From contig JAZUEE010000169.1 in NCBI GenBank assembly GCA_045639985.1, forward strand, positions 1 to 38,909: a stretch of 38,909 nucleotides of DNA, given 5' to 3'. This DNA is from Bacteroidales bacterium. Its GTDB lineage: Bacteria > Bacteroidota > Bacteroidia > Bacteroidales > WCHB1-69. The translations under genes and the position numbers were made by a program. The notes below the pieces were generated by a model. That model saw only the letters and a list, made by a program, of their open reading frames with translations. It was not told the origin of the DNA and made no database searches. Below, in pieces: positions 7,086 through 33,332 of the stretch. Numbering within the stretch: position 1 is the stretch's first letter; every line of letters begins with the position of its first letter.

Positions 7086-7117
7086 TATTAAGTTGTTAAA
7101 TTATTAAGTTATTAAGA
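7086..7117. repeat. Degenerate 8-bp tandem repeat (4 copies) between tolC and the adaptor gene
   Basis: TATTAAGT TGTTAAAT TATTAAGT TATTAAGA. Confidence 0.55.
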
Positions 7118-7133
7118 TACATTAATTGCTATA

Positions 7134-8369: not shown

Positions 8370-8371
8370 TT

Positions 8372-9115: not shown

Positions 9116-9117
9116 CT

Positions 9118-10338
9118 ATGAACATTGGAAATCTTATCAAAATAGCAATTAGTTCCCTATGCCGCAACAAAATGCGCACTTTGCTGACCATGCTTGGCAT
9201 CGTCATCGGCATCGCTTCTGTGATTGCCATGGTAAGTTTAGGACAAGCCTCCACGCAAAGTGTGCAACAGGAACTATCCTCAATGGGTTCCAACATGATT
9301 ATGATTATGCCTGCACGTCAAAACCGTGGCGGCGTAGATAGAGGAATGTCCACTTCCAAATCATTGAACAACAAAGATTTGGAATCTCTTAAAGAAAAAA
9401 CGCGCTATGTAGCAGCCGTTTCGCCCAACGTAAGCACCTCAGCACAACTGATTTACGGTTCCAAGAACCACTCCTGTTCCGTCAGCGGAGTAGATCCTTC
9501 ATACGCGAACATCCGTAAATACGAAATGAATATCGGTGTGATGTTCACTGAAGAAGACGTAAAACACTATTCCAAGGTCTGCGTTGTCGGACAAACTGTT
9601 GTTGATGCTCTTTTCCCCAACGGAGAAAGTCCATTGGGAAAAATCGTCCGTTTCAATTCCATTCCGATGACCATCATTGGTGTTTTATCTTCCAAAGGCC
9701 AAAATGGCATGGGTGAAGACCAAGACGACATCGTATTAGCCCCCTACACAACGATTCAGAAACGCTTTTTGGGCATTACCTATTTCAATATGATGTTTGC
9801 ATCTGCCACTTCCGAGGATGAATCCGAATTGGCGGCAACCGAAATCACATACATCTTACGCGCCAACCACGGCATTAAGAATCCGGATGATGATGACTTT
9901 GAAATCCGCACACAAGAAGAGTTGGTTTCCACAATGAGTTCCATTCAACAGATGCTAACCATGTTATTAGCCGCTATCGCCTCCATTTCATTGATTGTTG
10001 GTGGTATCGGCATTATGAACATCATGTACGTGACCGTTACGGAACGGACCAAGGAAATCGGTCTTCGAATGGCTATCGGCGCACATACCCGCGACATTAA
10101 AATGCAATTTCTGTGTGAAAGCGTCATCCTAAGTTTGATTGGCGGTGTCATCGGCATCATTTTCGGACTAATCATCTCCTACGCGGCCACGCGCCTGCTA
10201 TCATTCCCATACGTAATCAGCAAAACGGCTATCGGTATATCCTTTTTGGTGTGCGCTATCACCGGTGTCTTCTTCGGATGGTATCCAGCAAAGAAAGCGG
10301 CCAATATGGATCCGATATCGGCTTTGCGATACGAATAA
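9118..10338 (+). CDS. ABC transporter permease (MacB/FtsX-type)
   Basis: RTLLTMLGIVIGIASV, periplasmic core, GGIGIMNIM..VTERTKEIGLRMAIGA, PAKKAANMDPISALRYE. Confidence 0.95.
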   Translation: MNIGNLIKIAISSLCRNKMRTLLTMLGIVIGIASVIAMVSLGQASTQSVQQELSSMGSNMIMIMPARQNRGGVDRGMSTSKSLNNKDLESLKEKTRYVAAVSPNVSTSAQLIYGSKNHSCSVSGVDPSYANIRKYEMNIGVMFTEEDVKHYSKVCVVGQTVVDALFPNGESPLGKIVRFNSIPMTIIGVLSSKGQNGMGEDQDDIVLAPYTTIQKRFLGITYFNMMFASATSEDESELAATEITYILRANHGIKNPDDDDFEIRTQEELVSTMSSIQQMLTMLLAAIASISLIVGGIGIMNIMYVTVTERTKEIGLRMAIGAHTRDIKMQFLCESVILSLIGGVIGIIFGLIISYAATRLLSFPYVISKTAIGISFLVCAITGVFFGWYPAKKAANMDPISALRYE

Positions 10339-17093: not shown

Positions 17094-17112
17094 TTTATAA
17101 CAACTATTGATT

Positions 17113-17508
17113 ATGAAGAAGTTATTTTATATCAACTTATTACTTGTACTTATGGCAAGTTGTGCTTCCGAAAAGAAATGTGCCTCAACAAAGGAAATGG
17201 TGGTTTTGGATAAAAACACCAATGAAGTAACTTTGAAAGTTGGGCAACCCTGTGAAATTCAATTTATCACAAATGCCTCCACAGGATATTGGTGGCAATG
17301 GGTGAACAGCAATGAAATCACAGTCGTGGACTCCATTGGCGAACATTACACCAGCACGGCACCTGTCGGAATGGTGGGAGCCTCCTCCACACGCCACTGG
17401 AAATTTGAAGCCAAGAAAAAAGGCACAGAAACTTTGAAGTTCGTATATGCACGCTCCAACCGTGATGATGCCATCAAGACGCGTGAAGTGACCATAAAAG
17501 TCAAGTAA
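17113..17508 (+). CDS. Chagasin/I42 cysteine-protease inhibitor family lipoprotein
   Basis: Lipobox MASC; NASTGYWW (chagasin NPTTGY-like loop), GMVGA, F.A.KKG...L.F.YAR. Confidence 0.75.
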   Translation: MKKLFYINLLLVLMASCASEKKCASTKEMVVLDKNTNEVTLKVGQPCEIQFITNASTGYWWQWVNSNEITVVDSIGEHYTSTAPVGMVGASSTRHWKFEAKKKGTETLKFVYARSNRDDAIKTREVTIKVK

Positions 17509-18725
17509 TGGTCTCTGGCAAAATATACGTGGCCATTCCGGCCATGAATGAGCTTGAAGACCTGCCTTTCACGCTACAGGACTTGGTCCAACAAGATAGC
17601 CATGTCCCTTTTGATGTCTATGTGTGCGTGAACCAGCCGGAAGAATATTGGACAAATCCTGAAAAACGCACAATATGTGAAAGCAACCAACAGCTGTTGG
17701 AGCTATTGAAATCTTTTGAAGGATTGTCACTCCACATAATTGACCGCGCCTCTCAAGGCAAAGGATGGCAAGGCAAAAAGTTCGGTGTCGGATGGGCGCG
17801 CAAAACACTTTTCGACCATATCCTCGCGTTTGCCGCCCCCGAAGATATCATTATCAGCTTGGACGCAGACACGCGCGTGCGACCTCACTACATACAGTCA
17901 GTGGCTGATAATATGTCCACACACCCACACATTCCGGCCATCTCGGTGCCGTACTATCACCCGCTCACCAGCAACGAATTGCAGGACCGCGCCATTTTAC
18001 GGTACGAATTCTACATGCGCAATTATGCCATCAACCTCTATCGGATTGGCAGCCCATACAGTTTCACTGCCATCGGGTCGGCAATAGTAATGCGTGCCGG
18101 TGCGTTACGCAAAATCGGAGGCATCACGCCCGTAAAAAGCGGAGAAGACTTCTATTTGATGCAAAAACTCCGCAAAATGGCGCCTATCAGTAACTACAAT
18201 GAAGAAATGGTCTATCCCGCCGCGCGATTCTCTGACCGCGTGTTTTTTGGCACAGGTCCCGCACTTATCAAGGGTTCGCAAGGCGAATGGAATAGTTACC
18301 CCATCTACCATCATCAACTTTTCAGCAGCATCGCACAGACATACGAATTGCTGCCGCAACTTTATAAACAAGACATACAAACGGAGTTCTTGGAATTCTT
18401 ACAAAAGCAGTTTAATGACGGCCATTTATGGCAGAACATTCGCAAAAACGTGAAAGACTACGCACATTTCGTCCATGCTTTTCACGAAAAGGCCGATGGT
18501 TTGCGCATCTTGCAATACCTACGTCAGAAACACAAAGACAACACCCTATCGGATGAAGAAGCGTTGAATCAAAACCTCGCAACGTGGTTACCGAATGAAC
18601 AACACCCCTACTTCAACACTGATTTCAAGAAGCTGACCGTGGAACAATTAAACCATATCCGAAATCGACTATTTGAAATAGAGGCAGGACAGCGAAAAGT
18701 AGAGGAGAAATTTTCCAACTTATAA
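17508..18725 (+). CDS. Glycosyltransferase family 2 (GT-A) protein
   Basis: VAIPAMNE, GVGWARK, DAD (DxD) motif, GEDFY; TAATG overlap with the upstream gene. Confidence 0.8.
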   Translation: MVSGKIYVAIPAMNELEDLPFTLQDLVQQDSHVPFDVYVCVNQPEEYWTNPEKRTICESNQQLLELLKSFEGLSLHIIDRASQGKGWQGKKFGVGWARKTLFDHILAFAAPEDIIISLDADTRVRPHYIQSVADNMSTHPHIPAISVPYYHPLTSNELQDRAILRYEFYMRNYAINLYRIGSPYSFTAIGSAIVMRAGALRKIGGITPVKSGEDFYLMQKLRKMAPISNYNEEMVYPAARFSDRVFFGTGPALIKGSQGEWNSYPIYHHQLFSSIAQTYELLPQLYKQDIQTEFLEFLQKQFNDGHLWQNIRKNVKDYAHFVHAFHEKADGLRILQYLRQKHKDNTLSDEEALNQNLATWLPNEQHPYFNTDFKKLTVEQLNHIRNRLFEIEAGQRKVEEKFSNL

Positions 18726-19901: not shown

Positions 19902-19922
19902 TCGTTTACGTTTACAATAGAA

Positions 19923-19956
19923 CGAAAAAGGATGCCGCAAAACGCATCCTTTTTCG
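19923..19956 (+). terminator. Intrinsic terminator after gap
   Basis: CGAAAAAGGATGC-cgcaaaac-GCATCCTTTTTCG, a perfect 13-bp inverted repeat with A/T tracts. Confidence 0.85.
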
Positions 19957-19986
19957 TATTTTATTAATAATCAATAAAATATAAAC

Positions 19987-20865
19987 ATGAAAGGTATTGT
20001 ACTCGCTGGTGGTTCCGGCACAAGATTGTATCCTATCACCAAAGGTGTCAGCAAACAAATGCTGCCCATTTACGACAAACCGATGGTTTATTACCCGATT
20101 TCCGTATTGATGTTGGCCGGCATTCGCGATATTCTCATCATTTCCACTCCACAAGACCTCCCTGGTTTCAAACGCTTGTTGGGTGACGGTAGCGACTACG
20201 GCGTGAAATTCCAATATGCCGAACAACCCTCTCCCGATGGATTGGCCCAAGCCTTCATCATCGGTGAGGAATTTATCGGCGACGACTGTGCCTGCCTCGT
20301 ATTAGGTGACAACATCTTCTATGGCAGCCATTTCACTGGAAAGTTGTTGGATGCAGTAAAAGCCGCAGAACAGGATAACAAAGCCACCGTTTTCGGCTAT
20401 TGGGTAAAAGACCCCGAGCGCTACGGCGTGGCTGAGTTTGACGAAGAGGGCAACTGCCTTTCTATTGAAGAAAAACCCGCCCAACCCAAAAGCAATTATG
20501 CCGTGGTAGGCCTCTATTTCTACCCCAATAAAGTGGTGGAAGTAGCCAAACACATCAAACCTTCTGCCCGTGGCGAGTTGGAAATCACTACGGTGAATCA
20601 GGAATTTCTGAAAGACGGCGAACTAAAGGTTCAATTGCTCGGACGTGGTTTTGCCTGGCTTGACACCGGCACACATGACTCGCTGACCGAGGCCACCAAT
20701 TTCGTGGAAACTATTGAAAAACGCCAGGGACTGAAAATTGCCTGCTTGGAAGGCATTGCATACGACAAAGGTTGGATTACCGACGAGCGCCTTCGCGAAA
20801 TCGCCAAACCGATGCTCAAAAACCAATACGGTCAGTATTTAATGCAGTTATTAGAAAAAAGATAA
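19987..20865 (+). CDS. rfbA: Glucose-1-phosphate thymidylyltransferase
   Basis: [42 protein letters not shown]. Confidence 0.96.
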
Positions 20866-20883
20866 CCTCTTAATCTCAACACT

Positions 20884-22122
20884 ATGAATATCGCTGTCGC
20901 CGGCACCGGTTACGTCGGCCTCTCTATCGCAACATTGCTCTCACAGCACAACCACGTGGAAGCTGTGGATATTGTTCCTGAAAAGGTGGAACTCATCAAC
21001 AACAAAAAATCACCCATCCAAGACGACTACATTGAGGATTATCTACTCAACAAACCGTTGGACTTGCACGCCACGTTGGATGCGGCTGCCGCTTATCGCC
21101 AGGCCGATTTTGTGGTTATTGCGGCTCCCACAAACTACGACAGTGTCAAGAACTTTTTTGACACTTCCGCTGTGGAAAGCGTCATCAAACTGGTGAAGGA
21201 GAGCAACCCCGAGGCCATTATGGTCATCAAATCAACGATTCCCGTGGGCTTCACAGAATCCGTCAGAAAGAAATACGACACGAAGAACATCATCTTCGCA
21301 CCTGAATTTTTGCGTGAGAGCAAAGCCCTGTATGACCATCTCTACCCCAGCCGCATCATTGTCGGTTATGATCAAGAGGATGCCCGTTTGGAGAAGGCAG
21401 CACATACTTTTGCCGAGATGATTCACGCCGGCGCCATCAAACAGGACGTTCCCATTCTCTACATGGGCTCCACAGAGGCAGAAGCCGTGAAACTTTTTGC
21501 CAATACCTATCTCGCACTCCGCGTGTCCTATTTCAATGAACTGGATACGTATGCCGAAATAAAAGGACTTAACACACAGCATATCATTGACGGAGTCTGC
21601 TTGGACCCGCGTATTGGCACGCAATACAACAATCCTTCTTTCGGTTACGGTGGCTACTGCCTGCCCAAAGACACCAAACAATTGCTGGCCAACTATGCCG
21701 ACGTCCCCGAGGATTTGATTCGTGCTATCGTTGACAGCAATCGCACACGCAAGGACTTCATCGCCGACCAAGTGCTGAAAATGGCCGGTTATTACGATTA
21801 CTACAATCGTGGAGATTACGATGCTCAGTCCGAAAAACAGTGTGTCATCGGCGTTTTCCGTCTAACGATGAAGAGCAACAGCGACAATTTCCGCCAAAGT
21901 TCCATCCAAGGCGTAATGAAGAGAATTAAGGCCAAAGGCGCCACCGTTATCATTTACGAACCTACTTTGGAAAATGGTACGACATTCTTTGGCAGCAAAG
22001 TGATAAACGACCTCAATGAATTTAAAAAATCTTGCCAGGCCATTATCGCCAATCGTTATGATTCCTGCCTTGACGATGTCGCCGAAAAAGTCTATACGAG
22101 AGATATTTTCAAAAGAGATTAA
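20884..22122 (+). CDS. ugd: UDP-glucose 6-dehydrogenase
   Basis: [49 protein letters not shown]-terminal RD. Confidence 0.95.
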
Positions 22123-22201
22123 TTATTAACATCAGAGGATGCGGTAAAAAAACTGGAAAACGTAGTGAAGTTGGCAGCATCCTTTGAAAAAAGACCAACC
22201 A

Positions 22202-23224
22202 ATGCGCAAATCGAACATTGAATTACTACGGATTGTAGCGATGTTTCTCGTACTCATCGTGCACGCGGGTTTCTTCTCGTTAGGTGTACCCACACCCACA
22301 GAGGCAAGCACCGTGCCCGTAGCCACCTTCACGCGCATTTTCTTTCAAGCCGTCTCCGTGATTGCCGTACTCGTATTCGTGCTAATATCGGGATGGTTCG
22401 GCATTCGGACAAAAGTCAAAAGTGTGGTTAACTTCCTGTTCCAATGCCTATTCTATTCACTTGTTATCTATGCAGTGATGCTCATAACAGGGCATGCAAC
22501 TTTCGATTGGAAATCCATACAGAATGTGCTGCTCTTTGTCAATTCCTTCTGGTTTATCAAGGCATACCTCTGCTTAATGATTTTTGCGCCCGTGCTAAAC
22601 GCCTTTGTGGAAGCGGCTTCTGAGAAACAGTTCCGCTGGATGCTCATCGCCTTTTTCATATTCCAGTCTATCTACGGTTGGTTGACCAAAGGAGCAGCGT
22701 GGTTTGAACGCGGCTATTCCGTGATTTCTTTCTTTGGACTGTACCTGTTGGCCCGTTACGTGCGGCTATACCCCGCCCGCCCGTTCACGCTGCCGCGCAA
22801 ATATGATATGCTCATCTACTGGGGTGTCGTGCTGCTTGTCACGGTGACCAGCTTCGTAATGCTGCGTTTCGGTGCCTCCGAAAACAGTATTGACGTGGTA
22901 TTCCGACTGACAAGCCCCATCATCATTGCAGAAGCCCTGTATCTGCTCCTCTATTTCAGCAAATTGGATTTTCAGAACCGCTTTGTAAACTGGGTGGCAG
23001 GCTCCTGCTTCGCGGTGTTCCTGATTCAGCAGAATCCCTATTTCGGACGCCCCGTCTATGCGTCTTCTATTGCTAAATTGTATGCTGACTACAACGGTCC
23101 CGTGTGCGTTCTGCTCATCGCGACCTTTATTATAGCCATATTTGTCGCCGCCATCCTCATCGACCAGGTTCGCAAACAAATCTGGAAATGGGTGGGCGAA
23201 CGAAGCGACAAACCGGTAAAATAG
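22202..23224 (+). CDS. Acyltransferase family 3 (integral-membrane O-acyltransferase)
   Basis: RKSNIELLRIVAMFLVLIVH, FVLISGWF, WF..AY; about 10 hydrophobic segments. ATG 22202 preferred. Confidence 0.85.
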   Translation: MRKSNIELLRIVAMFLVLIVHAGFFSLGVPTPTEASTVPVATFTRIFFQAVSVIAVLVFVLISGWFGIRTKVKSVVNFLFQCLFYSLVIYAVMLITGHATFDWKSIQNVLLFVNSFWFIKAYLCLMIFAPVLNAFVEAASEKQFRWMLIAFFIFQSIYGWLTKGAAWFERGYSVISFFGLYLLARYVRLYPARPFTLPRKYDMLIYWGVVLLVTVTSFVMLRFGASENSIDVVFRLTSPIIIAEALYLLLYFSKLDFQNRFVNWVAGSCFAVFLIQQNPYFGRPVYASSIAKLYADYNGPVCVLLIATFIIAIFVAAILIDQVRKQIWKWVGERSDKPVK

Positions 23225-23257
23225 TTTGTTATTGAAAAATCTTATATAAAACCCAAT

Positions 23258-24340
23258 ATGAAAATCACCATCGTCGGCTGTGGCAACTCAGGACTGATTC
23301 ACGCAGCCAAATTGTTAGAAAACAAAATGGAAGTCGGCATACTTAAAACTTCCAACACCTTCAATGACGAGTTTTTCAACGTCATCAGTCAGGAAGGCGG
23401 TTACAATGTCAAGGACGAAACCAATGGCGGCAATCGCTTTTTTGTACGTCCGGCGTTCATCACACGCGATGTGGAGAAGGCCATCACCTTTGCCGATGTC
23501 ATCATGGTGATGACCACAACGTCGCAGCACGACTTTGTGGCGCAGAAAATAGCCCCGTACGTGCGCGACGGCCAGATCATCATCCTTGTGCCGGGTTATA
23601 TGGGCAGCTTCATTTTCAAGAAATATATCCATAAAGATGTGATTTACAGCGAATGGGAGACAACGGCCTACAACGGCCGCATTGTGGATTCGATGTATGT
23701 GCGCATCACTTTCTATAATCCGAGAAATGCTATTTCGGTGCTGCCAACCGCCAAAACAGATTACGTGGTGGGCCTGATGTCCAAATGCTTTGCCAATACG
23801 AAATATTCCAGACGCCACATCTTGGAGTCTGCCTTGCACAATCCCAATATGATTGTACATCCGATAGGCATTCTGTTTTCCGCTTCTCGCATTGAACACA
23901 GCAAAGGCGAGTTTTGGATGTACAAAGAGGCGTTTACCGATTCGGTCATCAATGTCATCAAGGCATTCGACAAACAAAAGAATCTGATTTTGCAGGAGTT
24001 CGGGTGCGAACCGCTCGATTACTTCGAAGCAGCCAAATGGCGTAACGAGGAAAATCTCAATATTGACGCGATGACAGTGTTCCGTTCCTTTGCCGATTCT
24101 TCCAACAAGGGACCATCCTTTATCAACCATCGTTATCTGAACGAGGATGTCCCGATGGGCTTGGGCTTGTTTATTTCCATCGGAAAAATTGTCGGGGTAG
24201 ATACCTCCGTGCAGGAAGCCATTATGTCGTTGTCTTCCGCATTATTAAATAAAGACTTACGTCAAAATGCCCGCACCATTCAGTATCTTCTTCAAAAAGA
24301 CACGGTAAGTGTGGATGATATTCGTGCGGCCATTTTGTAG
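23258..24340 (+). CDS. NAD(P)-dependent opine dehydrogenase (octopine/nopaline/CENDH family)
   Basis: Rossmann GCGNSG; C-terminal domain motifs LHNPNMIVHP, FWMYKE and HRYLNEDVPMGL are characteristic of the octopine dehydrogenase family; 360 aa. Confidence 0.85.
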   Translation: MKITIVGCGNSGLIHAAKLLENKMEVGILKTSNTFNDEFFNVISQEGGYNVKDETNGGNRFFVRPAFITRDVEKAITFADVIMVMTTTSQHDFVAQKIAPYVRDGQIIILVPGYMGSFIFKKYIHKDVIYSEWETTAYNGRIVDSMYVRITFYNPRNAISVLPTAKTDYVVGLMSKCFANTKYSRRHILESALHNPNMIVHPIGILFSASRIEHSKGEFWMYKEAFTDSVINVIKAFDKQKNLILQEFGCEPLDYFEAAKWRNEENLNIDAMTVFRSFADSSNKGPSFINHRYLNEDVPMGLGLFISIGKIVGVDTSVQEAIMSLSSALLNKDLRQNARTIQYLLQKDTVSVDDIRAAIL

Positions 24341-24362
24341 TGATAAAGAATAACTGTTTGAT

Positions 24363-25811
24363 ATGGCAGGTTCTGAATTGAAAGAGAAAACCATCTCGGG
24401 AATGCTTTGGACGAGTGTCGGCAAGTTTGGCACGTCGGGACTTGCATTCCTCTCCAACCTCGTGTTGGCTCGTTTGCTGTTGCCGCACGACTTTGGCTGC
24501 ATTGCTATGTTGCAGGTTTTCATCGCCATATCAACCATCTTTGTGACGGGAGGTTTTGGCGCGGCGCTCGTTCAGAAAAAAGATCCCCAGCACATTGACT
24601 ATACTTCCGTCTTCTACTGGAACCTTGTATCTTCCATCTTTTTTTACGGCGTACTCTATTTCTGCAGCCCCGCCATCGCACGTTATTACGCTATGCCGGA
24701 GCTGAGCGCGGTGCTCCGCGTACAGAGTATTTCCCTGATCATCCAAGCCTTCTCAATGGTACAATCCAGCCAATTGCAGAAACAATTGCGCTTCAAGGAA
24801 CTTTCAGTCCGAAACATTGTCGCCGCCCTTGTTGGCGCGGTGGTCGCCATCATTATGGCTTTGTTGGGCTTTGGCGTCTGGAGCTTGGTGGCTTCCCAAA
24901 TCGTGACCAGCCTGGCCGGAGTCCTCCTCCTTTGGAAGATGAGCAGCTGGCGGCCAACATGGGAGTTCAGTATGCAGTCGCTGAAAGAATTGTTCGCCTT
25001 CGGCGGATTGATGGCGCTATCCTCACTGGTGGAAACCGTATATACCAACCTCCAAAGTCTTATCATCGGTCGATTATATTCTCCAGATGACCTCGGATAC
25101 TATAATCAAGCAAAGAAATTAGAGGCAATGCCGACTGACTCCTTGTCTCAAATTGTAAATCAGGTTTCCTTTCCCGTCTTCGCCGCATTACAGGATGATA
25201 AAGAACGGCTACTTGTAGGTGTGCGTAAAAATATCAAAGCCATTACCTACCTGAATTTCCCGATGATGGCCCTGATGATTGTGATTGCCCATCCCATCAT
25301 TACATTCCTGTATGGGAAAAATTGGGAACCTTCCGTGCCTTATTTCCAAATCCTTTGTATATCCAGTATGGTTTATACACTCAACACTTTGAATACTAAC
25401 GTAATAAAATCTTTGGGCAAAAGTAAAATTTACTTTTTCGTCCAATTGGCAAAACGATTGATTGGCATTGGATTGATTTTCTTCGGCGTTCAGTTTGGAA
25501 TTATGGGACTTTTGTGGGGCGTTACTTCTGTGGGCTATATTTGCGTTATTATCAATGCTATCGTAAATAAACGACTAATCAACTACGGCATCTGGGCGCA
25601 GATTAAGGATGTTGGAATCTGCTATCTGTTGGCAGCTTTGTTGGCTGTTGCCGTATATTATTTAGGAACTTTGATACCTGTTCACGAATATATTCTGATG
25701 TTTATCCAGGCAGCCATCTACGCAGGACTATATTGGTTATTCTCCGTCATCTTGAAACTTGATGGCTATCAAACGTACCGTGAAATTCTACTTAATAAAA
25801 TTAAACGATAA
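24363..25811 (+). CDS. wzx: Wzx-type polysaccharide flippase (MOP superfamily)
   Basis: LKEKTISGMLW, LARLLLPHDFG, LKELFAFG, IIGRLYS..DLGYY..A, VSFPVF; many TM segments. Confidence 0.9.
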   Translation: MAGSELKEKTISGMLWTSVGKFGTSGLAFLSNLVLARLLLPHDFGCIAMLQVFIAISTIFVTGGFGAALVQKKDPQHIDYTSVFYWNLVSSIFFYGVLYFCSPAIARYYAMPELSAVLRVQSISLIIQAFSMVQSSQLQKQLRFKELSVRNIVAALVGAVVAIIMALLGFGVWSLVASQIVTSLAGVLLLWKMSSWRPTWEFSMQSLKELFAFGGLMALSSLVETVYTNLQSLIIGRLYSPDDLGYYNQAKKLEAMPTDSLSQIVNQVSFPVFAALQDDKERLLVGVRKNIKAITYLNFPMMALMIVIAHPIITFLYGKNWEPSVPYFQILCISSMVYTLNTLNTNVIKSLGKSKIYFFVQLAKRLIGIGLIFFGVQFGIMGLLWGVTSVGYICVIINAIVNKRLINYGIWAQIKDVGICYLLAALLAVAVYYLGTLIPVHEYILMFIQAAIYAGLYWLFSVILKLDGYQTYREILLNKIKR

Positions 25812-25817
25812 TCCATT

Positions 25818-26561
25818 ATGTCATATATTTCCTTGTTATTCCGTTTCCTCCGCACCAACATCATTAAGACATTGATGGTAAATTTCTGTTTGCTGCCATG
25901 GAAACAGGCCATACGGCTTCCGATTTTCGTATATGGTCGATTTACATTGCGGGAACATAAAGGCCGCATCATACTCAAACAACCCGCGCGCGCGGAGATG
26001 ATTATTATCGGAAAAAAGTCATCTTACGTCACTACAACAGTACAGCGCACTATTTGGACAGTAAACGGCACGCTCGTTTTCGGTGGCCCTATGAAGTTCG
26101 CGTTTGGTTCCTACTTGCTGGTGACCGACAACGCTACGCTTTCCTTCGGCACAGGCGGTACATACTGCGGCTCCAATTTCAAGGTTTTCTGCTTTGACAA
26201 AATCACCATCGGTGACAATGTGCGCATGGCCTGGGACGTACAGATTATCGACAGCAGTTTCCATTATACCAAGAACCTTAACAAAGACGGCTATGTCGCC
26301 CCGCTTACCAAACCCATTCTCTTGGAGAGCAACATCTGGATTGGGAATCGTTCCACCATTTCTAAAGGCGCTGTAGTTCCCAACGAGACCATCATTGCAT
26401 CTAACAGTTTGGTCAACAAAGATTTCTCCGATAATCCACCCTATAGTCTCATTGCCGGAAGTCCCGCCACGCTCAAAGTTTCTGGCATCCAGCGTATCTG
26501 GGACGATAAAACACAGAAGGAATTGGATGAACAGTTTGGATATATTCGAACACACCTTTAA
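25818..26561 (+). CDS. Hexapeptide-repeat (left-handed beta-helix) acyltransferase
   Basis: ITIGDNV, IIDSSFH, WIGNRSTISKG, IIASNSLVNKDF, LIAGSPA. Confidence 0.85.
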   Translation: MSYISLLFRFLRTNIIKTLMVNFCLLPWKQAIRLPIFVYGRFTLREHKGRIILKQPARAEMIIIGKKSSYVTTTVQRTIWTVNGTLVFGGPMKFAFGSYLLVTDNATLSFGTGGTYCGSNFKVFCFDKITIGDNVRMAWDVQIIDSSFHYTKNLNKDGYVAPLTKPILLESNIWIGNRSTISKGAVVPNETIIASNSLVNKDFSDNPPYSLIAGSPATLKVSGIQRIWDDKTQKELDEQFGYIRTHL

Positions 26562-26575
26562 TAGATTTTAAGATA

Positions 26576-27733
26576 ATGCGCAAACATATTGCTTTCATAT
26601 ACCATTTGCTCGTTTGGACGGCTAAGTATCCGACCAAGCATAAGTTGCACGTTTTGTTCGACTACTTAAAACTTTATCGTCGCAAGGGGTTGAATATGAA
26701 CGAATATTATCAGTTTGAATTTGAGAAACGTACAGAATATTTCCGTCTGGATTTTTTGGGAGAGAACGAACAGCGTTTCTATCTTGATTGGCTCAATCCG
26801 AAGAAATACTATATTTTGGCACGCAACAAATTTATGGCCCATAAGATGCTTGAAAACACGGGTGTCCGTAAGTCGCCGCTGTATTGCTACTATCAGCCCG
26901 AGGGCAAAGTGGCTGCCAGTGCTGAAATCGCGAACGACCTGACCGGCGTCTGCCGTATATTGCAAGCCAAGCAGGTAACGGAGTGCGTCATCAAAACGAC
27001 TGAAAGCTCGCACGGCGACAATGTGTGGGTCATTCGCAACATTACTTTCAGCGATGGCGATGCCATACTGGAACGCTATGACGGACAGCAGCTCAAACTT
27101 TCAGAAGTGCTCGGTCACCAACCGCTGCTGTTTGAAGGTCTTATCCGACAAACAAAGCAATTTGCAGCATTCAACCCGTCATCGGTGAACACCGTGCGTT
27201 TTATGACAGCACTTTATCCAGACGGAACCGCGCGTGTGATTGCCACTTTCATCAAAATCGGTCGCGCAGGCAAATGTGTGGATAACGCTGGTGGCGGAGG
27301 CAACGTTGACGTTTGTGTCGATGTTGAAACTGGCACCGTGCAGTATGCTATCCGATACGATGGTTGGCGACATATTACCGACATTGACTGCCATCCGGAC
27401 AGCGGTGCCCAGCTCAATGGCGTGGTCATTGACAACTGGCAGCAGATTAAGGATGAGGTGGTCCGCTTCCAACAGGCCTTCCCTTATTGCAAAGTCGCCG
27501 GCTGGGATATTGCCATCACCGACGAAGGCCCTGTCGTCATAGAGGTCAACGATATGTGGGACCGCACAGGACAGTATTTCATCCGCCGCGGTTGGCGAAA
27601 CGAAATTCGCGACTGCTATTTGGCTTGGCGGCCGTTCGGCAAACCCGTAATGGGCCGACTTGAACAACGACTCACAGAAAAGAAACTTCAAAAAATAGTA
27701 AATCACACAGAAACCGACCACTTCACAAAATAA
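26576..27733 (+). CDS. Sugar-transfer-associated ATP-grasp protein (amidoligase) 1
   Basis: NK..AH, VIK...SSHG, NPSSVNTVRFMT, VDN..GG, HPDSG, GWDIAITDEGPVVIEVN (metal-binding ExN). Confidence 0.85.
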   Translation: MRKHIAFIYHLLVWTAKYPTKHKLHVLFDYLKLYRRKGLNMNEYYQFEFEKRTEYFRLDFLGENEQRFYLDWLNPKKYYILARNKFMAHKMLENTGVRKSPLYCYYQPEGKVAASAEIANDLTGVCRILQAKQVTECVIKTTESSHGDNVWVIRNITFSDGDAILERYDGQQLKLSEVLGHQPLLFEGLIRQTKQFAAFNPSSVNTVRFMTALYPDGTARVIATFIKIGRAGKCVDNAGGGGNVDVCVDVETGTVQYAIRYDGWRHITDIDCHPDSGAQLNGVVIDNWQQIKDEVVRFQQAFPYCKVAGWDIAITDEGPVVIEVNDMWDRTGQYFIRRGWRNEIRDCYLAWRPFGKPVMGRLEQRLTEKKLQKIVNHTETDHFTK

Positions 27734-27753
27734 TTCATAACCCGATATCTATC

Positions 27754-28827
27754 ATGTTCCAATCTCTATATCATAAATATTCGATAAAGCAACGAGAAAA
27801 AGCTGACATTGCCAATATTTGCGGGAAACTCAAACAATGTGACCGCAAACCGCTTTCTGCCGAACAGAAAAAGGAAATACAAAATTTTTATCAACCATTG
27901 GTCGGGCATACCGTTCCAACCTATTGGCATGAATATTTCTATTCTCGTAACGGACAATTCTCGGCACAATATATTCCAACCAGCTTTTATCACAAGGAAA
28001 TCATTTACCGACTCAACAATTTCCAGTTACGCCACGCATACGTGGACAAAGGGGTGTATGATATTTATTTCCCGGATTTGAATCGTCCCAAAACCATTGT
28101 GAAGAATATGAATGGCTATTTTTACGATGACCATTCTGCGATAACGAAGGAAGAGGCCATGGCACGCTGTCAGAATTTGGCCGGTGCGGTGGTGAAGCCC
28201 ACAATGGAGGGAATGTGGGGCGAGGGTGTCCACGTGTTCACATCCGCCAATGGCCAAACCGACATGGACCAATCGGTTGAAGAGCTTTTCAAAAGCTATG
28301 GAAAGAACTTCATCGTGCAGGAGAAAGTGAACCAGCACGTCGACATGGCCCGTTTGAACCCGACTTCGCTGAACACATTGCGCATTTTGTCCTATCGTCA
28401 AGATAATGAGGTACACATTCTTTATGCGGTGGTACGCATCGGACGTCTGGGCAAGAGCGTGGATAATGAGACCGCCGGCGGTATCAATGCGGATATCCAA
28501 TTGGACAATGGCACTATTCTCGAATGTGCGTACGGCACGCCAAGCGAGAAAAAAATCATGACCACCGACAACGGCACCGTACTCAAAGGTTTCCAAATCC
28601 CATCTTTCGAAAAGGCCTTGGCCGTCGTGCGCGAAATGCACCTCCGCCTGCCGTATTTCAACCTCGTGGGCTGGGATTTCGGCATCGACGAGTCGGGTGA
28701 GCCGATAATGATAGAATGGAACCGCGCTCCCGATCTCAGTCAGACAGCGCACGGGCCCGCATTTGGAGAAATGACGGAAGAAATTATTAGGACGGCACTC
28801 CAACGTCCAGATACAAGACTAAAATAA
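27754..28827 (+). CDS. Sugar-transfer-associated ATP-grasp protein (amidoligase) 2
   Basis: DK..YD, VVKPT....GEGV, FIVQEKVNQH, NPTSLNTLRILS, VDN..AGG, GWDFGIDESGEPIMIEWN. Confidence 0.85.
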   Translation: MFQSLYHKYSIKQREKADIANICGKLKQCDRKPLSAEQKKEIQNFYQPLVGHTVPTYWHEYFYSRNGQFSAQYIPTSFYHKEIIYRLNNFQLRHAYVDKGVYDIYFPDLNRPKTIVKNMNGYFYDDHSAITKEEAMARCQNLAGAVVKPTMEGMWGEGVHVFTSANGQTDMDQSVEELFKSYGKNFIVQEKVNQHVDMARLNPTSLNTLRILSYRQDNEVHILYAVVRIGRLGKSVDNETAGGINADIQLDNGTILECAYGTPSEKKIMTTDNGTVLKGFQIPSFEKALAVVREMHLRLPYFNLVGWDFGIDESGEPIMIEWNRAPDLSQTAHGPAFGEMTEEIIRTALQRPDTRLK

Positions 28828-28838
28828 AAACACACGAT

Positions 28839-29855
28839 ATGCTGATATTTGTAACAGGCGGTGCCGGCTTCATTGGCACACATACTTTAGTAGAACTTTA
28901 CAACGCAGGACACCAAGCTGTTGTAGTGGATAACCTATCCAACTCCAACGAACTGGCACTTAAACGTGTAGCTGAACTGACGGGCCACGAGGTTCCGTTC
29001 TACAAAGTTGATATCCGCGACCGCGCGGCTTTGTCCAAAGTGCTCGACCAGTATCACTTCGACGCATGTATCCACTTCGCCGGCTTGAAAGCCGTGGGCG
29101 AGTCGGTGGCCAAACCGTGGGAGTACTATGACAACAACATCTCCGGCACATTAGTGCTGTTGGACGAACTGCGTCGCCACGACTGCCGTAACCTCATTTT
29201 TTCCTCTTCGGCAACCGTGTATGGCGACCCCGAAATCATTCCGATTACGGAAACTTGCCCGAAAGGACATTGCACAAATCCCTACGGTCAGACGAAAAGC
29301 ATGTTGGAAGAAATCATGATGGACATGCAGAAAGCAGACCCTGCGTGGAACATCGTATTATTGCGCTATTTCAACCCCATCGGGGCGCACCCATCCGGCA
29401 GAATCGGAGAGAATCCTAACGGCATTCCCAACAATCTAATGCCATACATCACCCAAGTAGCTGTGGGCAAACGTGCGGAATTAGGGGTTTTCGGCAACGA
29501 CTATGACACGCCCGATGGCACGGGTGTGCGCGATTATATTCACGTCGTGGATTTGGCAAAGGGCCACGTCAGCGCGTTGGTGGCTATCGAGCGCCAGTGC
29601 GGACTGGCTATCTACAATCTCGGCACCGGCCACGGCTACTCCGTATTAGACGTGGTGAAGGCTTTTGTGAAGAGCACTGGAATGCCCGTACCCTACAGCA
29701 TCAAACCGCGCCGCGCCGGCGATATCGCCACCTGCTACTCCGATCCTGCCAAAGCCGCTGACGAACTCGGATGGACCGCCCAATACGATATTGAAGATAT
29801 GTGCCGCGACGCCTGGAACTGGCAAAAAAACAACCCCAACGGGTACGAGGAATAA
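28839..29855 (+). CDS. galE: UDP-glucose 4-epimerase
   Basis: TGGAGFIG, HFAGLKAVGES, FSSSATVYG, YGQTK, LRYFNP, DGTGVRDYIHV. Confidence 0.96.
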   Translation: MLIFVTGGAGFIGTHTLVELYNAGHQAVVVDNLSNSNELALKRVAELTGHEVPFYKVDIRDRAALSKVLDQYHFDACIHFAGLKAVGESVAKPWEYYDNNISGTLVLLDELRRHDCRNLIFSSSATVYGDPEIIPITETCPKGHCTNPYGQTKSMLEEIMMDMQKADPAWNIVLLRYFNPIGAHPSGRIGENPNGIPNNLMPYITQVAVGKRAELGVFGNDYDTPDGTGVRDYIHVVDLAKGHVSALVAIERQCGLAIYNLGTGHGYSVLDVVKAFVKSTGMPVPYSIKPRRAGDIATCYSDPAKAADELGWTAQYDIEDMCRDAWNWQKNNPNGYEE

Positions 29856-29892
29856 TGCGGTAATGCGGTAATGTGATAATGCGATAATGTGC
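29853..29892 (+). repeat. 8-bp tandem repeat TAATGYGN x5 starting at the galE stop codon
   Basis: TAATGCGG TAATGCGG TAATGTGA TAATGCGA TAATGTGC. Confidence 0.85.
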
Positions 29893-29938
29893 TACGCAGT
29901 CATATTAAATTATAACTTGAGTCTAAAAAATAAGCTAT

Positions 29939-31216
29939 ATGAAAGAAACTAAAATTTGTGTAATAGGACTTGGATACGTAGGTTTGCCATTGGCACGCCT
30001 ATTTTCCACCAAATATCCGACCATTGGTTTTGATATGAATCAATCCCGCGTGGATGCCTTGATGACGGGCCACGATGCCACATTGGAAGTGTCGGATGAA
30101 CTCTTGCAAGAAGCCATCAACGTACACGGGTTCAAATGTACCACCAACTTGGATGAGGTGCGTGACTGCAATTTTTACGTAGTAGCCGTGCCTACACCAG
30201 TAGATGAAAACAACCGCCCAGACTTGAAGCCACTTTGGGGCGCCAGCGAAACCGTAGGCAAGGTCATCTCCAAAGGCGATGTTGTAGTGTATGAATCCAC
30301 AGTCTATCCCGGTGTTACGGAAGAAGAGTGCCTACCCGTCGTGGAGCGTGTCAGCGGATTGAAATTCAACGTCGATTTCTATGCCGGTTACAGTCCGGAA
30401 CGTATCAACCCCGGAGACAAAACACATACGGTTGAGAAAATCAAAAAGGTAACTTCCGGTTCCACTCCCGAAATCGCGGATTACGTAGATGGCGTATATA
30501 ATTCCGTGCTCGTAAACGGCACGCACAAGGCACCGAGCATTAAAGTGGCAGAGGCCTCCAAGATTATCGAAAACTCCCAACGCGACGTGAATATCGCCTT
30601 TATGAACGAGTTGGCCAAGATTTTCAATGCTATGGGTATTGATACTCACGACGTTATCGAAGCCGCTTCCAGCAAATGGAACTTCATCAAGCTGAGCCCT
30701 GGTCTTGTAGGCGGCCACTGCATCAGTGTGGACCCGTATTATCTGATTCAAAAAGCGCAAGTCTATGGCGTACTGCCCCGCGTGATGAGCAATGCCCGCC
30801 GCCTCAATGACGGGATGGGCGCGTACGTTGCCAACCAGACAATCAAGTGCATGAACAAAAAAGGATTGGTCGTGAAAGATGCCAAAATCCTCATCCTCGG
30901 TATCACATTCAAGGAGAACTGCCCGGACATTCGCAATACAAAGATTGTGGATATCTATCATACGTTAACCGAATATACCAACAACATCACCATTTATGAC
31001 CCGTGGGCCAATGCCGCGCACGTGCGCCACGAATATGATGTGGATGTCGTCAATGATGTGGATATTGTCAAAAAAGTACAGTATGACGCAGTGATTTTGG
31101 CCGTCGCACACAAAGAATTTTTGAATATGGATGTCCAATCGTTGGTGAAACCCGATGGCGTGATTTACGATGTCAAGGGCATCCTTCCAAGAGACATCGT
31201 GGATGGTCGGCTTTAA
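29939..31216 (+). CDS. UDP-N-acetylhexosamine 6-dehydrogenase (TviB/WbpO-like)
   Basis: GLGYVGLP, ESTVYPG, YSPERINPGD, IENSQRDVNIA, PGLVGGHCISVDPYY, TFKENCPDIRN. Confidence 0.9.
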   Translation: MKETKICVIGLGYVGLPLARLFSTKYPTIGFDMNQSRVDALMTGHDATLEVSDELLQEAINVHGFKCTTNLDEVRDCNFYVVAVPTPVDENNRPDLKPLWGASETVGKVISKGDVVVYESTVYPGVTEEECLPVVERVSGLKFNVDFYAGYSPERINPGDKTHTVEKIKKVTSGSTPEIADYVDGVYNSVLVNGTHKAPSIKVAEASKIIENSQRDVNIAFMNELAKIFNAMGIDTHDVIEAASSKWNFIKLSPGLVGGHCISVDPYYLIQKAQVYGVLPRVMSNARRLNDGMGAYVANQTIKCMNKKGLVVKDAKILILGITFKENCPDIRNTKIVDIYHTLTEYTNNITIYDPWANAAHVRHEYDVDVVNDVDIVKKVQYDAVILAVAHKEFLNMDVQSLVKPDGVIYDVKGILPRDIVDGRL

Positions 31217-31307: not shown

Positions 31308-32759
31308 GTGAAAAGACTTTTTATTGTAGCATTAATGCTTATGGCAACAAGTTTGATTAAGGGACAGAACTATATGGTGTCTCCTTGTATGTATGGCTTG
31401 GAAGAAGCCAAAACAGACATTGAGCGCTTTTATGCTTTGTATAACACTCATGTAGAAGCTGTTAAATATGGCGTAGAGGTTGACTACGATGGTGTCAAGG
31501 AAATAAATATTGAAATTCCTGCTGATGCTAAAACCATTCCGCTGACTTCATACAACATTTTCAATGATCTTGTTATCAATGTTAAGAACAACAAAAAAAA
31601 CTTCTATCTGTTCTCCTTGACTCAACCCACAGACAGTGTTTTTGTCCCCAAAAAGACGATTGATGACGGGGATTTTACCAATGTAAAAGGTCTTCGCACA
31701 GGGCAACATCTTGTGATATTACAGGATGATCGTCTTTGGGTAGATAAACGGCAAGGGCACGAATATGGCCATACGCGCAAGGATTTACTTTATGTTGTGG
31801 ATGGTATCGCGGTTAACAAACCTATCATGCCCTACAACACCAAAGAGACGAAACCCAACGTGCGTATATGCCCTGTCACTGAGGACGTAAAAGTTATTTC
31901 TGGAATAACCATCAATCGTGTCAAAGGTTCCAAATACAAAACCTATTGTTTTGATATTCAAAATCAATACAACGTAGAGTTATGTGATGTAGTCATCAAC
32001 ACGCCGGAAAGCAATTTGACAGCAGATGCCGCTATCCGCATCAACAATTGTGCAAAAGTACAGGTTGATCATGTGAAAATAAACGGAACTTACTCAAGAA
32101 CAGATTACTACGGTTACGGAATTTCAATGAACAACGTATGGAAATCCGAAATTCTGTACCTCAATTCTCGTTCCAATTGGGGTATTTTCGGCACAAACAA
32201 TATTAACGAAGTACTTCTTGACCATTGCGATATAAATCGTTATGACATACACTGTTACGGCAAAGATGTAACCATTCAGAATTGCAAATTCAGCAATCTC
32301 TACAACCAGTTTTCCTCTGTTTATGGCACCGTACTTTTCGACAAATGTGTCTTTAGCAACCACGTGCCTGTGTTGTTGGAATCTAGTTATAATGCCTATA
32401 CTGGTTTTGAACTGAAATTCAACGATTGCGTCTTCAATATCAATAGCAAATGCAACTATTTGGTTGATGCAAGATATCTGACCGATATTCGTAATTCCCG
32501 CCCTGAAGTGGAGCAAAAGAATCTGCCTAATATTACTCTGACAAAGTCCACCATTAATCTGATAGAACCGGTGAAAAGATATTATATGTTCCGTTTCGGC
32601 AGCATCTCCTATACCGGAGATGTCGGATATATCAACTCTATAGACATTAAGGACTTAAAAGTGAACGGAGGAAAACTTCAGATGAAAGTCTCAAACATGG
32701 ATTTTCCGCACAAAAAAACACTAAAGTTTCCTTTGTATAACCAAGTGTTAGGTTTATAA
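31308..32759 (+). CDS. Exported protein with probable right-handed parallel beta-helix (pectin-lyase-like) region
   Basis: GTG start and signal peptide; repeated beta-coil units with Asn/Cys ladders (IRINNC, YGISMNN, LDHCDINR, IQNCKF, FDKCVF, FNDCVF). Confidence 0.55.
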   Translation: MKRLFIVALMLMATSLIKGQNYMVSPCMYGLEEAKTDIERFYALYNTHVEAVKYGVEVDYDGVKEINIEIPADAKTIPLTSYNIFNDLVINVKNNKKNFYLFSLTQPTDSVFVPKKTIDDGDFTNVKGLRTGQHLVILQDDRLWVDKRQGHEYGHTRKDLLYVVDGIAVNKPIMPYNTKETKPNVRICPVTEDVKVISGITINRVKGSKYKTYCFDIQNQYNVELCDVVINTPESNLTADAAIRINNCAKVQVDHVKINGTYSRTDYYGYGISMNNVWKSEILYLNSRSNWGIFGTNNINEVLLDHCDINRYDIHCYGKDVTIQNCKFSNLYNQFSSVYGTVLFDKCVFSNHVPVLLESSYNAYTGFELKFNDCVFNINSKCNYLVDARYLTDIRNSRPEVEQKNLPNITLTKSTINLIEPVKRYYMFRFGSISYTGDVGYINSIDIKDLKVNGGKLQMKVSNMDFPHKKTLKFPLYNQVLGL

Positions 32760-32792
32760 TAACTCTTGAAAAGAAATTATAATGTAATAAAC

Positions 32793-33332
32793 ATGCTTAA
32801 GAAAAGTGTATTTATTGTTTTGATGCTTCTTTGTACGGTGTTGGCTAATGCCCAAGGAAAACACTTTTTCACATTCGGATATGGATATTCGCCAGAAGTG
32901 AAACCTTATCTTACTAATGAATTTTCTAATGGCGTCGGACCTTTCTTTGGAGGATATTCATACAATGTCACTTCATGGTTAGAAGTGGGCGCGACATTAG
33001 GATATACACATGTGAATATGCCCGAAAACCCCGCATATTTGAGCGCTATACGATTGCAGGTAAAAAAATACAACAACATAATGTTGCTGGGTATGATAGA
33101 CTTCGTATGGTACCAAAAGCCTTATGTGAAGATGTACAGCGGTCTTGGAGCTGGAATAGACTGCCGAATTCAGTCAGGAGAACGAGGTTTTTACTCCAGT
33201 TGCTACTTTGCCTCACAAATTACGGTATTCGGAATCTCGGCAGGCAAACAAGTATATGGCAATCTGGAATTTGGATACGGAAACTTAGGTATGATCAGAC
33301 TTGGAATTGGGTATAAACTACAAAAAAAGTAA
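32793..33332 (+). CDS. Small outer-membrane beta-barrel protein
   Basis: Signal peptide ending ANA-Q; about 8 amphipathic strands; YSGLGAG, LEFGYGNLG, RLGIGYKL. ATG 32793 preferred. Confidence 0.7.
   Translation: MLKKSVFIVLMLLCTVLANAQGKHFFTFGYGYSPEVKPYLTNEFSNGVGPFFGGYSYNVTSWLEVGATLGYTHVNMPENPAYLSAIRLQVKKYNNIMLLGMIDFVWYQKPYVKMYSGLGAGIDCRIQSGERGFYSSCYFASQITVFGISAGKQVYGNLEFGYGNLGMIRLGIGYKLQKK

Follow-up and report, generated by a model that had tools for sequence, protein, structure and literature searches.

In a 38,909-nt contig of a Bacteroidales bacterium (JAZUEE010000169.1 of GenBank assembly GCA_045639985.1; the whole stretch is the window hereafter), the genes at positions 19987–31216 (the block) include one for a protein of the opine-dehydrogenase family (ODH), located directly before the gene of a Wzx-type flippase. 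Our leading explanation, held with modest confidence, is that the block forms one half of a small pathway of the Wzx/Wzy type, the half for sugar precursors, modification and export, and that this pathway makes an amino-acid-bearing surface glycan or glycopeptide-like polymer. The same explanation has the pathway conserved across the Bacteroidales family, with its opine-type step carried out by ODH here and by an LKR-like enzyme (resembling lysine-ketoglutarate reductase/saccharopine dehydrogenase) in relatives. Somewhat more tentatively, ODH and the LKR-like enzyme could be cassettes that substitute for each other, immediately ahead of the flippase gene, in a family-wide surface glycopeptide pathway. 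The genome of the window (G000) is a metagenome-assembled genome of 359 contigs and 2.36 Mb, 80.6% complete; contigs are given C-numbers and loci L-numbers below.

The block and its opine-dehydrogenase homologue

The block contains ten open reading frames (ORFs), all on the + strand and spaced 6–91 nt apart.

19987–20865, + strand: RmlA, glucose-1-phosphate thymidylyltransferase (TIGR01207, 497 bits against a cut-off of 361; Pfam NTP_transferase, 1e-75)
20884–22122, + strand: Ugd, UDP-glucose 6-dehydrogenase, for UDP-glucuronic acid (UDP-GlcA) (three UDPG_MGDP_dh domains; TIGR03026, 308 bits; NF011631, 553 bits, under the equivalog cut-off of 757)
22184–23224, + strand: membrane acyltransferase, Acyl_transf_3 (PF01757, 2.9e-14; many hydrophobic segments)
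23258–24340, + strand: ODH, opine-dehydrogenase family, the gene of "slot X" (PF02317, 5.6e-31)
24363–25811, + strand: Wzx-type MOP flippase (Polysacc_synt_3, 8e-101; polytopic)
25818–26561, + strand: left-handed beta-helix (LbH) acetyltransferase (NCBIfam LacA/WbbJ/WcaF-type, 4e-10 to 1e-7; weak Pfam Hexapep, 0.0018)
26576–27733, + strand: ATPgrasp_ST ligase 1 (PF14397, 2.9e-38, 132 bits against a cut-off of 31.4)
27754–28827, + strand: ATPgrasp_ST ligase 2 (PF14397, 6.9e-40, 137 bits against a cut-off of 31.4)
28839–29855, + strand: GalE-type UDP-hexose 4-epimerase (TIGR01179, 451 bits against a cut-off of 262)
29939–31216, + strand: TviB/WbpO-like UDP-N-acetylhexosamine 6-dehydrogenase, for the uronic acid UDP-HexNAcA (NF011729, 519 bits, below the cut-off of 592; TIGR03026, 381 bits)

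A sequence-only reading of this DNA had described ten co-oriented, tightly spaced genes, with an octopine-family dehydrogenase 22 nt upstream of Wzx, an LbH protein and two ATP-grasp proteins after it, and ugd and a UDP-HexNAc dehydrogenase near the two ends. This layout was confirmed. The gap between the ODH stop codon (ending at 24340) and the Wzx start (24363) is exactly 22 nt, and Pfam and NCBIfam agree with the remaining assignments; the RmlA, Acyl_transf_3 and GalE genes had gone unnamed. The flippase, which has many hydrophobic segments, scores 337 bits with Polysacc_synt_3 and 138 bits with Polysacc_synt, and stays under the NCBIfam equivalog cut-offs (310 of 720 bits for the O-glycosylation flippase, 268 of 273 bits for PRK10459). 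No glycosyltransferase, Wzy or initiating transferase was found among the block genes, no search having been aimed at an initiating transferase.

The Octopine_DH domain of ODH (PF02317) spans residues 186–329 and scores 108 bits against a cut-off of 30. In a sequence search of the PDB the nearest solved relative was 1bg6, the N-(1-D-carboxyethyl)-L-norvaline dehydrogenase (CENDH) of Arthrobacter (3.6e-25, 25% identity), with octopine dehydrogenase next; 3c7a is a solved octopine dehydrogenase. The AlphaFold (AF2) model of ODH (pLDDT 90.7, pTM 0.91) starts with a strand-helix-strand. In a Foldseek comparison of this model with the PDB the top 12 matches are all opine dehydrogenases, 1bg6 (E 1.1e-24, TM 0.87/0.89) being followed by octopine, staphylopine, yersinopine and pseudopaline dehydrogenases, while ketopantoate reductases appear from rank 14. 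When 14 homologues, close and distant, are aligned, the Rossmann-fold glycines G7/G9/G12 (GxGxxG) are invariant, as are H201, R292 and D297, which fall on the 'HP' and 'RY..ED' stretches in 1bg6 and 3iqd; the His and the Arg/Asp of the R-Y-x-x-E-D motif are presumably the catalytic residues, as in the CENDH and octopine dehydrogenase literature.

Judged by these comparisons, ODH is a full-length opine-dehydrogenase homologue (EC 1.5.1.- family). Opine dehydrogenases catalyse the NAD(P)H-linked condensation of the amine of an amino acid with a 2-oxo acid. The known enzymes (1bg6, 3c7a) have in common with ODH the fold (TM 0.87–0.89 to 1bg6), the His/Arg/Asp and GxGxxG columns and, presumably, the chemistry. 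They differ from it in that they serve free-metabolite pathways (opine catabolism, anaerobic redox balance), whereas ODH is encoded directly before Wzx in a glycan operon.

The distribution of ODH was surveyed at a threshold of E ≤ 1e-10 in 301 sampled genomes of the order and 151 of the family, the latter including 53 of its own genus and 19 of a second genus. Homologues occur in 13 order genomes (G000, three close relatives and nine at 27–35% identity) and in 32 family genomes, among them 23 and 6 genomes of the two genera, respectively. Because this occurrence is patchy across family and genus, ODH is an accessory gene.

Its neighbours are more constant. In a set of 25 close-ODH loci (the block plus 24 fetched loci at 67–98% identity), Wzx follows immediately 3′ of ODH on the same strand in 22, and an ATPgrasp_ST or TupA-like ATP-grasp gene lies within 10 kb in 15; a FemAB-like GNAT gene (Acetyltransf_6) is found in seven. 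The other three loci (L032–L034) have neither an ATP-grasp nor a FemAB-like GNAT gene, and there ODH adjoins an ordinary GNAT gene, apart from Wzx. Counted by hand over genomes with a close ODH, 17 of 29 have ATPgrasp_ST or TupA on the same contig within 10 kb, and all seven close-ODH contigs from metagenomes (L178–L184) carry Wzx, ATPgrasp_ST or a CapA-like PGA_cap gene nearby. The linkage of ODH to Wzx and to amide-forming enzymes is well beyond chance, and the association that the sequence-only reading had put forward as its own test was thus found. ORFs were called longest-first, and genes were missed or merged (e.g. LKR in L150, ATP-grasps in L047 and L030), so the locus counts here and the partner counts on the tree below are slight undercounts.

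Alternation of ODH with an LKR-like enzyme before Wzx

Where a genome has no ODH, Wzx is immediately preceded by the gene of a 402-aa protein (P0124) with an AlaDh_PNT_N domain. The best PDB match of P0124 is the LKR domain of human AASS (8e8u, 1.5e-30, residues 13–398). Yeast L-lysine-forming saccharopine dehydrogenase (Lys1, 2q99) is matched at 3.8e-14, and alanine dehydrogenase over the first ~100 residues only (1e-4). The AlaDH/PNT family of P0124 also includes the N5-(carboxyethyl)ornithine synthase of Lactococcus. AASS and Lys1 work in lysine metabolism, whereas the LKR-like gene here lies in the Wzx operon; their family is unrelated to that of ODH and has its reaction class in common with it. 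In this class, an amine and a 2-oxo acid are condensed with NAD(P)H to an N-carboxyalkyl amino acid, such as saccharopine, octopine or alanopine.

The two genes rarely meet in one genome. The LKR-like gene is present in 30 of the 53 genus genomes, of which 21 have ODH only, 29 LKR only, one both (G352) and two neither (G400, G439); this split uses the 22 close ODHs, and G444, with a distant ODH (33% identical), is entered as LKR-only. In the second genus, ODH occurs in six genomes, LKR in three, and both in none. A Fisher test of the exclusion over the 53 genus genomes gives 1.6e-11 with kinship ignored; since the genomes are related, this value overstates the case, and a count on a tree is the fairer measure. 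Of the 36 LKR loci that were fetched, 34 have Wzx as the immediate same-strand neighbour of LKR. A maximum-likelihood tree built from 62 Wzx proteins (22 adjoin ODH, 35 LKR and five neither, one of these five being an ORF-calling miss) requires at least seven changes of partner between ODH and LKR, and on it the clade of the block (three ODH loci) is sister to a clade of five LKR loci.

Moreover, three operon architectures were each seen both with ODH and with LKR at slot X (T9SS, type IX secretion system; GT, glycosyltransferase; GT4L, a Wzy-like and GT4 fusion described below):

(i) PASTA/T9SS-protein flank, X, Wzx, TupA, GT4L, GT2
(ii) the type of the block: RmlA, Ugd, X, Wzx, and further on GalE and TviB
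(iii) X, Wzx, ATP-grasp/PGA_cap, Wzy-like, TupA, GT4, GT2

The exchange can be followed at the DNA level. The block is collinear with LKR loci of that sister clade, in G421, G390 and G418, with 76–79% identity over RmlA–Ugd and 68–69% over Wzx; the collinearity includes GAPDH in G421, and extends through LbH/ATP-grasp, GalE and TviB in G390. The sole segment swapped in the collinear loci is 22125–24377 (2.25 kb, Acyl_transf_3 plus ODH), in place of which a single LKR gene is found.

The repeated replacement, in slot X, of one enzyme by an unrelated one of its reaction class is strong indirect evidence, and the strongest available, for an opine-type reductive condensation among the steps of the pathway. 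As the ODH and LKR families both condense an amine with a 2-oxo acid, the flipped product very likely includes an N-carboxyalkyl (opine-type) amino acid.

The two enzymes also occur in one predicted polypeptide. P0125, a 790-aa protein from one assembled contig, consists of an ODH part 68% identical to the ODH of the block and an LKR-like half 50% identical to P0124, joined by a linker of ~25 residues; no similarity was detected between its ODH part and P0124. Among the 26 loci of a metagenome scan for P0125, no ODH-LKR tandem or fusion was found. P0125 could represent a genuine fusion or a tandem in transition, or could result from read-through or from an artefact of gene calling or assembly.

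The wider operon, the proposed pathway and its rivals

The operon that recurs in the family runs X, Wzx, (LbH), ATPgrasp_ST in one to six copies and often with PGA_cap, TupA, GT4L and GT2; the LbH acetyltransferase gene recurs immediately 3′ of Wzx in related loci. Within the genus (n = 53), ATPgrasp_ST is present in 49 genomes, a TupA-like ATP-grasp in 52 and the Wzx orthologue in 52, against 23 for ODH. In G000 the TupA, GT4L and GT2 genes lie on contig C135, outside the block, and TupA-like genes are found on contigs C135 and C148. Because the genes flanking TupA-GT4L-GT2 on C135 (DXS and another GT4) match those around the whole operon in G363, the lineage of the block has split the operon, and its X-Wzx-LbH-ATP-grasp half has been placed among nucleotide-sugar genes beside GAPDH. 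GT4L is a 767-aa fusion of a polytopic, Wzy/O-antigen-ligase-like N-terminal half with a GT4 C-terminal half (C135:19029–21317, locus L054, in G000; another at L040:4776–7058), and in other loci the halves are separate genes. Its N-terminal half shares 50% identity with a membrane protein that is encoded separately and matches Wzy_C weakly (E 4.6e-4). The smallest loci take two forms. One is X-Wzx-TupA-GT4L-GT2, with a single ligase, and G410 is without any ATPgrasp_ST match; the other is ODH-Wzx-LbH-G3PDH-FemAB-like GNAT, with no adjoining glycosyltransferase.

The sequence-only reading had proposed a module that makes an opine and joins it by an amide bond to uronic acids, for a polymer with possible zwitterionic or metal-chelating properties. 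What stands of it is the opine-type step and its tie to Wzx and the amide ligases, through the identity of ODH, the linkage and the alternation with LKR. Its extent has to be redrawn: the conserved unit is wider than the block, including the TupA-like ATP-grasp, the Wzy-like+GT4 protein and GT2 on C135, and the ATP-grasps are near-universal in the genus, with or without ODH.

As for the ligases themselves, K140, D311, E323 and N325 of ligase 1, and K148, D308, E321 and N323 of ligase 2, are invariant in 61 of 61 members of the ATPgrasp_ST family; these correspond to the Lys of an ATP-grasp and to its D...ExN metal/ATP columns. A PDB sequence search with the two block ATP-grasps returned no match at E ≤ 1.

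More distant ODH homologues (25–35% identity) keep different company. Named genomes gave 353 confirmed loci, of which the best 80 were compared; these come from Bacteroidota, Chloroflexota, Pseudomonadota, Bacillota, Patescibacteria, Cyanobacteria and Archaea. In 71 of the 80, the immediate neighbour of ODH encodes an unannotated protein of 550–630 aa (c4). At most three genes away there is an ATP-grasp gene (of the L-amino-acid-ligase, Ter or Ddl type) in 61, and a DegT aminotransferase is present in 48, the usual order being DegT, ATP-grasp, ODH, c4. Examples of c4 from the sampled loci L057–L136 and beyond are:

L085:11067–12929: c4 of Polaribacter marinus MSW13
L018:7577–9439: c4

No Pfam, NCBIfam or PDB sequence match was obtained for c4, and a PDB profile search gave nothing significant. 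Its AF2 model (pLDDT 89.4) matches the E subunit of adenosylcobalamin-dependent glutamate mutase (6.7e-14), as well as ornithine and lysine aminomutases and methylmalonyl-CoA mutase, and its N-terminus has an invariant His-x-x-Gly inside 'DVHTLG' (DxHxxG-like), which resembles the cobalamin-binding motif. The DegT/ATP-grasp/ODH/c4 cassette is separate from the ODH-Wzx operon. Cultured strains for its study are Polaribacter marinus MSW13, Heminiphilus faecis AM35 and Azoarcus indigens DSM 12121. The cassette supports a general rule by which ODH-like enzymes of glycan loci act together with ligases that form amides, and it warns that such enzymes can have partner-dependent roles.

We propose the following scheme. 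RmlA, Ugd, GalE and the TviB-like enzyme, going by the established functions of their families, would supply dTDP-Glc, UDP-GlcA, the 4-epimers and UDP-HexNAcA, and GT2 with the Wzy-like+GT4 protein of C135 would build the lipid-linked unit. The two ATPgrasp_ST ligases and the TupA-like ligase of C135 would attach one or more amino acids, forming amide bonds via acyl-phosphates, and the most plausible attachment point in the lineage of the block is the carboxyl of a uronic acid. With NAD(P)H, ODH would condense a free amino group of the amino acid with a 2-oxo acid to an N-carboxyalkyl residue, as its family and the alternation at the slot suggest; in related genomes the LKR/saccharopine-dehydrogenase-like enzyme would perform the same step. 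ODH may act either on the free amino acid, the order of the sequence-only reading, or after ligation. The latter order fits the N-epsilon-(1-carboxyethyl)-N-alpha-(galacturonoyl)-lysine of Providencia rustigianii O14 (review PMC10609480). The LbH and Acyl_transf_3 enzymes would O-acylate the product (for the latter, O-acylation of the glycan is probable), and Wzx would flip the finished unit. It is plausible that the uronic acids from Ugd and the TviB-like enzyme are the acyl donors in the lineage of the block; this link is the weakest part of the proposal, since most related operons are without an adjoining Ugd or TviB.

Several observations weigh against this pathway. ATPgrasp_ST (49/53) and TupA (52/53) are present whether or not a genome has ODH, and being near-universal in the genus they are independent of ODH in particular. 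In 12 of the 29 close-ODH genomes the ATP-grasp genes are on other contigs, and in four (G180, G294, G396, G432) ODH stands apart from Wzx and adjoins a GNAT gene. Outside the lineage of the block, its LKR sister loci and a few others, the module has no Ugd, TviB and GalE beside it, and we know of no member with an established enzyme activity or glycan structure. Finally, ODH and LKR can co-occur, as G352 has both and P0125 joins both, and there is a small chance that the two act in sequence rather than as substitutes.

A serious, if unlikely, alternative is that the ATP-grasps, together with CapA-like PGA_cap proteins in relatives, assemble an oligo- or poly-amino-acid chain of the teichuronopeptide or poly-glutamate kind that is attached to or co-exported with the glycan; ODH or LKR would then make a saccharopine-like cap or branch, and the uronic acids would not be acyl donors. 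It has to be taken seriously because sister loci carry multi-copy ATP-grasps and CapA-like genes: five to six ATPgrasp_ST genes stand in a row in L037 and L154, and PGA_cap is found among the ATP-grasps in 13 of 36 LKR loci and one of 25 ODH loci (L053, L137–L141, L143, L146, L148, L150, L154, L167, L168; L037), a hint of a poly- or oligo-amino-acid part. In L137, moreover, an ORF of 738 aa matches the PGA_cap model and is roughly double the size of a PGA_cap gene that stands alone. The TupA-like ATP-grasp is near-universal in the genus, and a comparative-genomics paper (PMC4431377) describes linked ATP-grasp ligases acting in successive peptide ligations, including in teichuronopeptides and O-antigen. 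The block, however, is without PGA_cap, has only two ATP-grasps and is flanked by two uronic-acid-forming dehydrogenases, and the smallest X-Wzx-TupA-GT4L-GT2 loci have one ligase.

It is improbable, in our judgement, that ODH and the LKR-like enzyme do other redox work, such as keto-sugar reduction or a plain amino-acid dehydrogenase reaction for a precursor. Ketopantoate reductases and D-mandelate dehydrogenases are indeed the next fold neighbours of ODH after the opine dehydrogenases, the single Pfam match of the LKR-like protein is AlaDh_PNT_N and its NCBIfam match, to alanine dehydrogenase, is weak, and the pairing of the distant ODH clade with a B12-mutase-like protein makes partner-dependent roles possible. 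Yet the His/Arg/Asp columns of opine dehydrogenases are invariant, these enzymes rank well above the reductases by sequence and fold, and P0124 aligns near full length to LKR but over a short part to alanine dehydrogenase; the sole reaction class known to be common to the two families is amine plus 2-oxo acid condensation. Less probable still is a small secreted opine-type peptide or staphylopine-like metallophore, made by ODH and the ATP-grasp ligases and exported by the MOP transporter with the sugar genes as mere neighbours. Staphylopine, yersinopine and pseudopaline dehydrogenases do stand among the 12 best fold matches, and the smallest ODH loci have no adjoining glycosyltransferase; against this, Wzx scores as a polysaccharide flippase, GT2 and Wzy-like+GT4 genes lie within the same operon in most genomes, and the nucleotide-sugar genes of the block are co-oriented and tightly spaced. 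The best match in G000 to a nicotianamine-synthase-like CntL (PF03059), on contig C254, scores 19 bits against a cut-off of 27.1. With no CntL-like gene found in G000, a staphylopine-like system was ruled out as the main explanation.

Surroundings of the block, related systems and biological meaning

Two further features mark the 5′ end and the interior of the block:

19922–19957, + strand: terminator-like hairpin 3′ of the GAPDH gene, at the 5′ boundary of the block (14-bp stem, 6 GC pairs, T-rich tail)
29852–29891, + strand: RTAATGYG octamer in five tandem copies, in the GalE–TviB spacer, read from the sequence

In G000 the octamer forms 39 arrays of 3–11 copies; the 11-copy array is beside TupA (C135:21329), and another array lies at the end of contig C135. 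Contigs from public runs pile up and break at 29852–29891, with a depth spike and loose ends. RTAATGYG is probably a dispersed intergenic repeat of G000 and not part of the pathway. The GC content is 0.45–0.51 in the block, 0.37–0.42 just downstream and 0.42–0.45 just upstream. A sigma-70 promoter scan, whose model does not cover Bacteroidota promoters, gave 19 sites against 27.1 expected and was uninformative. At 90–100% likeness, contigs of two RNA libraries (X1, X2) match short stretches in RmlA, Ugd, both ATP-grasps, GalE and TviB, and in ODH for X1 only; as DNA carry-over is possible, and as contigs reveal neither transcripts nor their levels, these matches were not used as evidence of expression.

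Directly 3′ of the block, and before further genes unrelated to it, lie those for two secreted or membrane proteins of 483 aa (31308–32759) and 188 aa (32766–33332), each with a hydrophobic N-terminal stretch, although a hydropathy scan flagged the stretch in the 188-aa protein only. Neither had a Pfam match, and the 483-aa protein, the only one scanned, had none in NCBIfam. L027, the closest relative, has both genes at the corresponding position, with 88–90% identity. The pair (31308–33332) was considered as a paralogue of a 482-aa and 188-aa pair at 930–2957 and rejected: the sequences are unrelated and fall in different clusters. Elsewhere in the window there are a MacAB-TolC-like efflux operon (OEP, HlyD, ABC ATPase, MacB/FtsX permease) at 5763–10338 and, on the opposite strand, a subtilase with a T9SS C-terminal sorting domain at 10355–12013. 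At 17107–18725 a gene for a chagasin-family peptidase inhibitor (I42) abuts a GT2-family gene with zero gap, and this I42-GT2 pair recurs near ODH/ATP-grasp loci of other genus members (L038, L039, L050, L056).

Several known systems resemble parts of the proposed pathway. Structural chemistry has for decades shown that surface polysaccharides of bacteria can bear amino-acid and opine substituents, which affect charge, antigenicity, and phage or immune recognition. Strains with opine residues include Proteus mirabilis O13 and Shewanella fidelis KMM 3582. The teichuronopeptide/TupA system of alkaliphilic Bacillus, after which Pfam ATPgrasp_TupA is named, is similar in its TupA-like ATP-grasp, here in a conserved operon, in its uronic-acid synthesis genes, here in the block, and in the joining of a peptide or amino acid to a uronic-acid polymer, here predicted. 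The pathway differs from it in being of the Wzx/Wzy type and Gram-negative, with the TupA of G000 outside the block; to our knowledge no opine-type enzyme has been described in the teichuronopeptide/TupA system. In the staphylopine-type CntKLM system, CntM is a fold relative of ODH (rank 5–12), whereas G000 has no CntL-like nicotianamine synthase above the cut-off and the context here is one of glycan genes. In the Campylobacter jejuni HS:2 capsule, an ATP-grasp amidoligase amidates glucuronate (PMC11800379), a precedent for amide formation by such an enzyme on the glucuronic acid of a capsule. The HS:2 amidoligase reportedly belongs to a different ATP-grasp family, uses serinol or ethanolamine derivatives as amine donors and involves no opine step.

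The closest structural likeness is with Providencia O-antigens. As reviewed in PMC10609480, that of P. rustigianii O14 carries N-epsilon-[(S)-1-carboxyethyl]-L-lysine amide-linked to GalA, and that of P. alcalifaciens O35 alanopine on Qui4N. An amide-linked N-carboxyalkyl amino acid on a sugar is the type of product predicted for the block. The Providencia examples are structures from Enterobacterales for which no gene assignment was found in the literature searched, whereas the block is known from its genes alone. In the full-text literature searched, whose coverage is incomplete, no paper linked an opine or saccharopine dehydrogenase to a polysaccharide locus. This suggests that, while the parts are of known families, their combination, the alternation of cassettes and the predicted product are new.

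If ODH and the LKR-like enzyme are interchangeable as proposed, gut and rumen Bacteroidales would display opine-decorated glycans whose side chain (e.g. carboxyethyl versus dicarboxypropyl) is switched by cassette exchange, and the opine residues of Proteus and Providencia O-antigens, familiar for a long time, would gain their first explanation in terms of genes and enzymes. The candidates for the opine step and its partners are at hand: one ODH, one LKR-like enzyme and three families of ATP-grasp ligases. The collinear operons amount to a natural experiment, and since they differ only in the opine-type enzyme, the difference between their products can be predicted. The multi-phylum DegT/ATP-grasp/ODH-like/B12-mutase-like cassette would, in that case, make another class of amino-acid-modified amino sugars. 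Almost every genome of a large Bacteroidales genus from animal guts has the system, and its product therefore probably makes up a major component of the surface of gut bacteria that are abundant and mostly uncultured.

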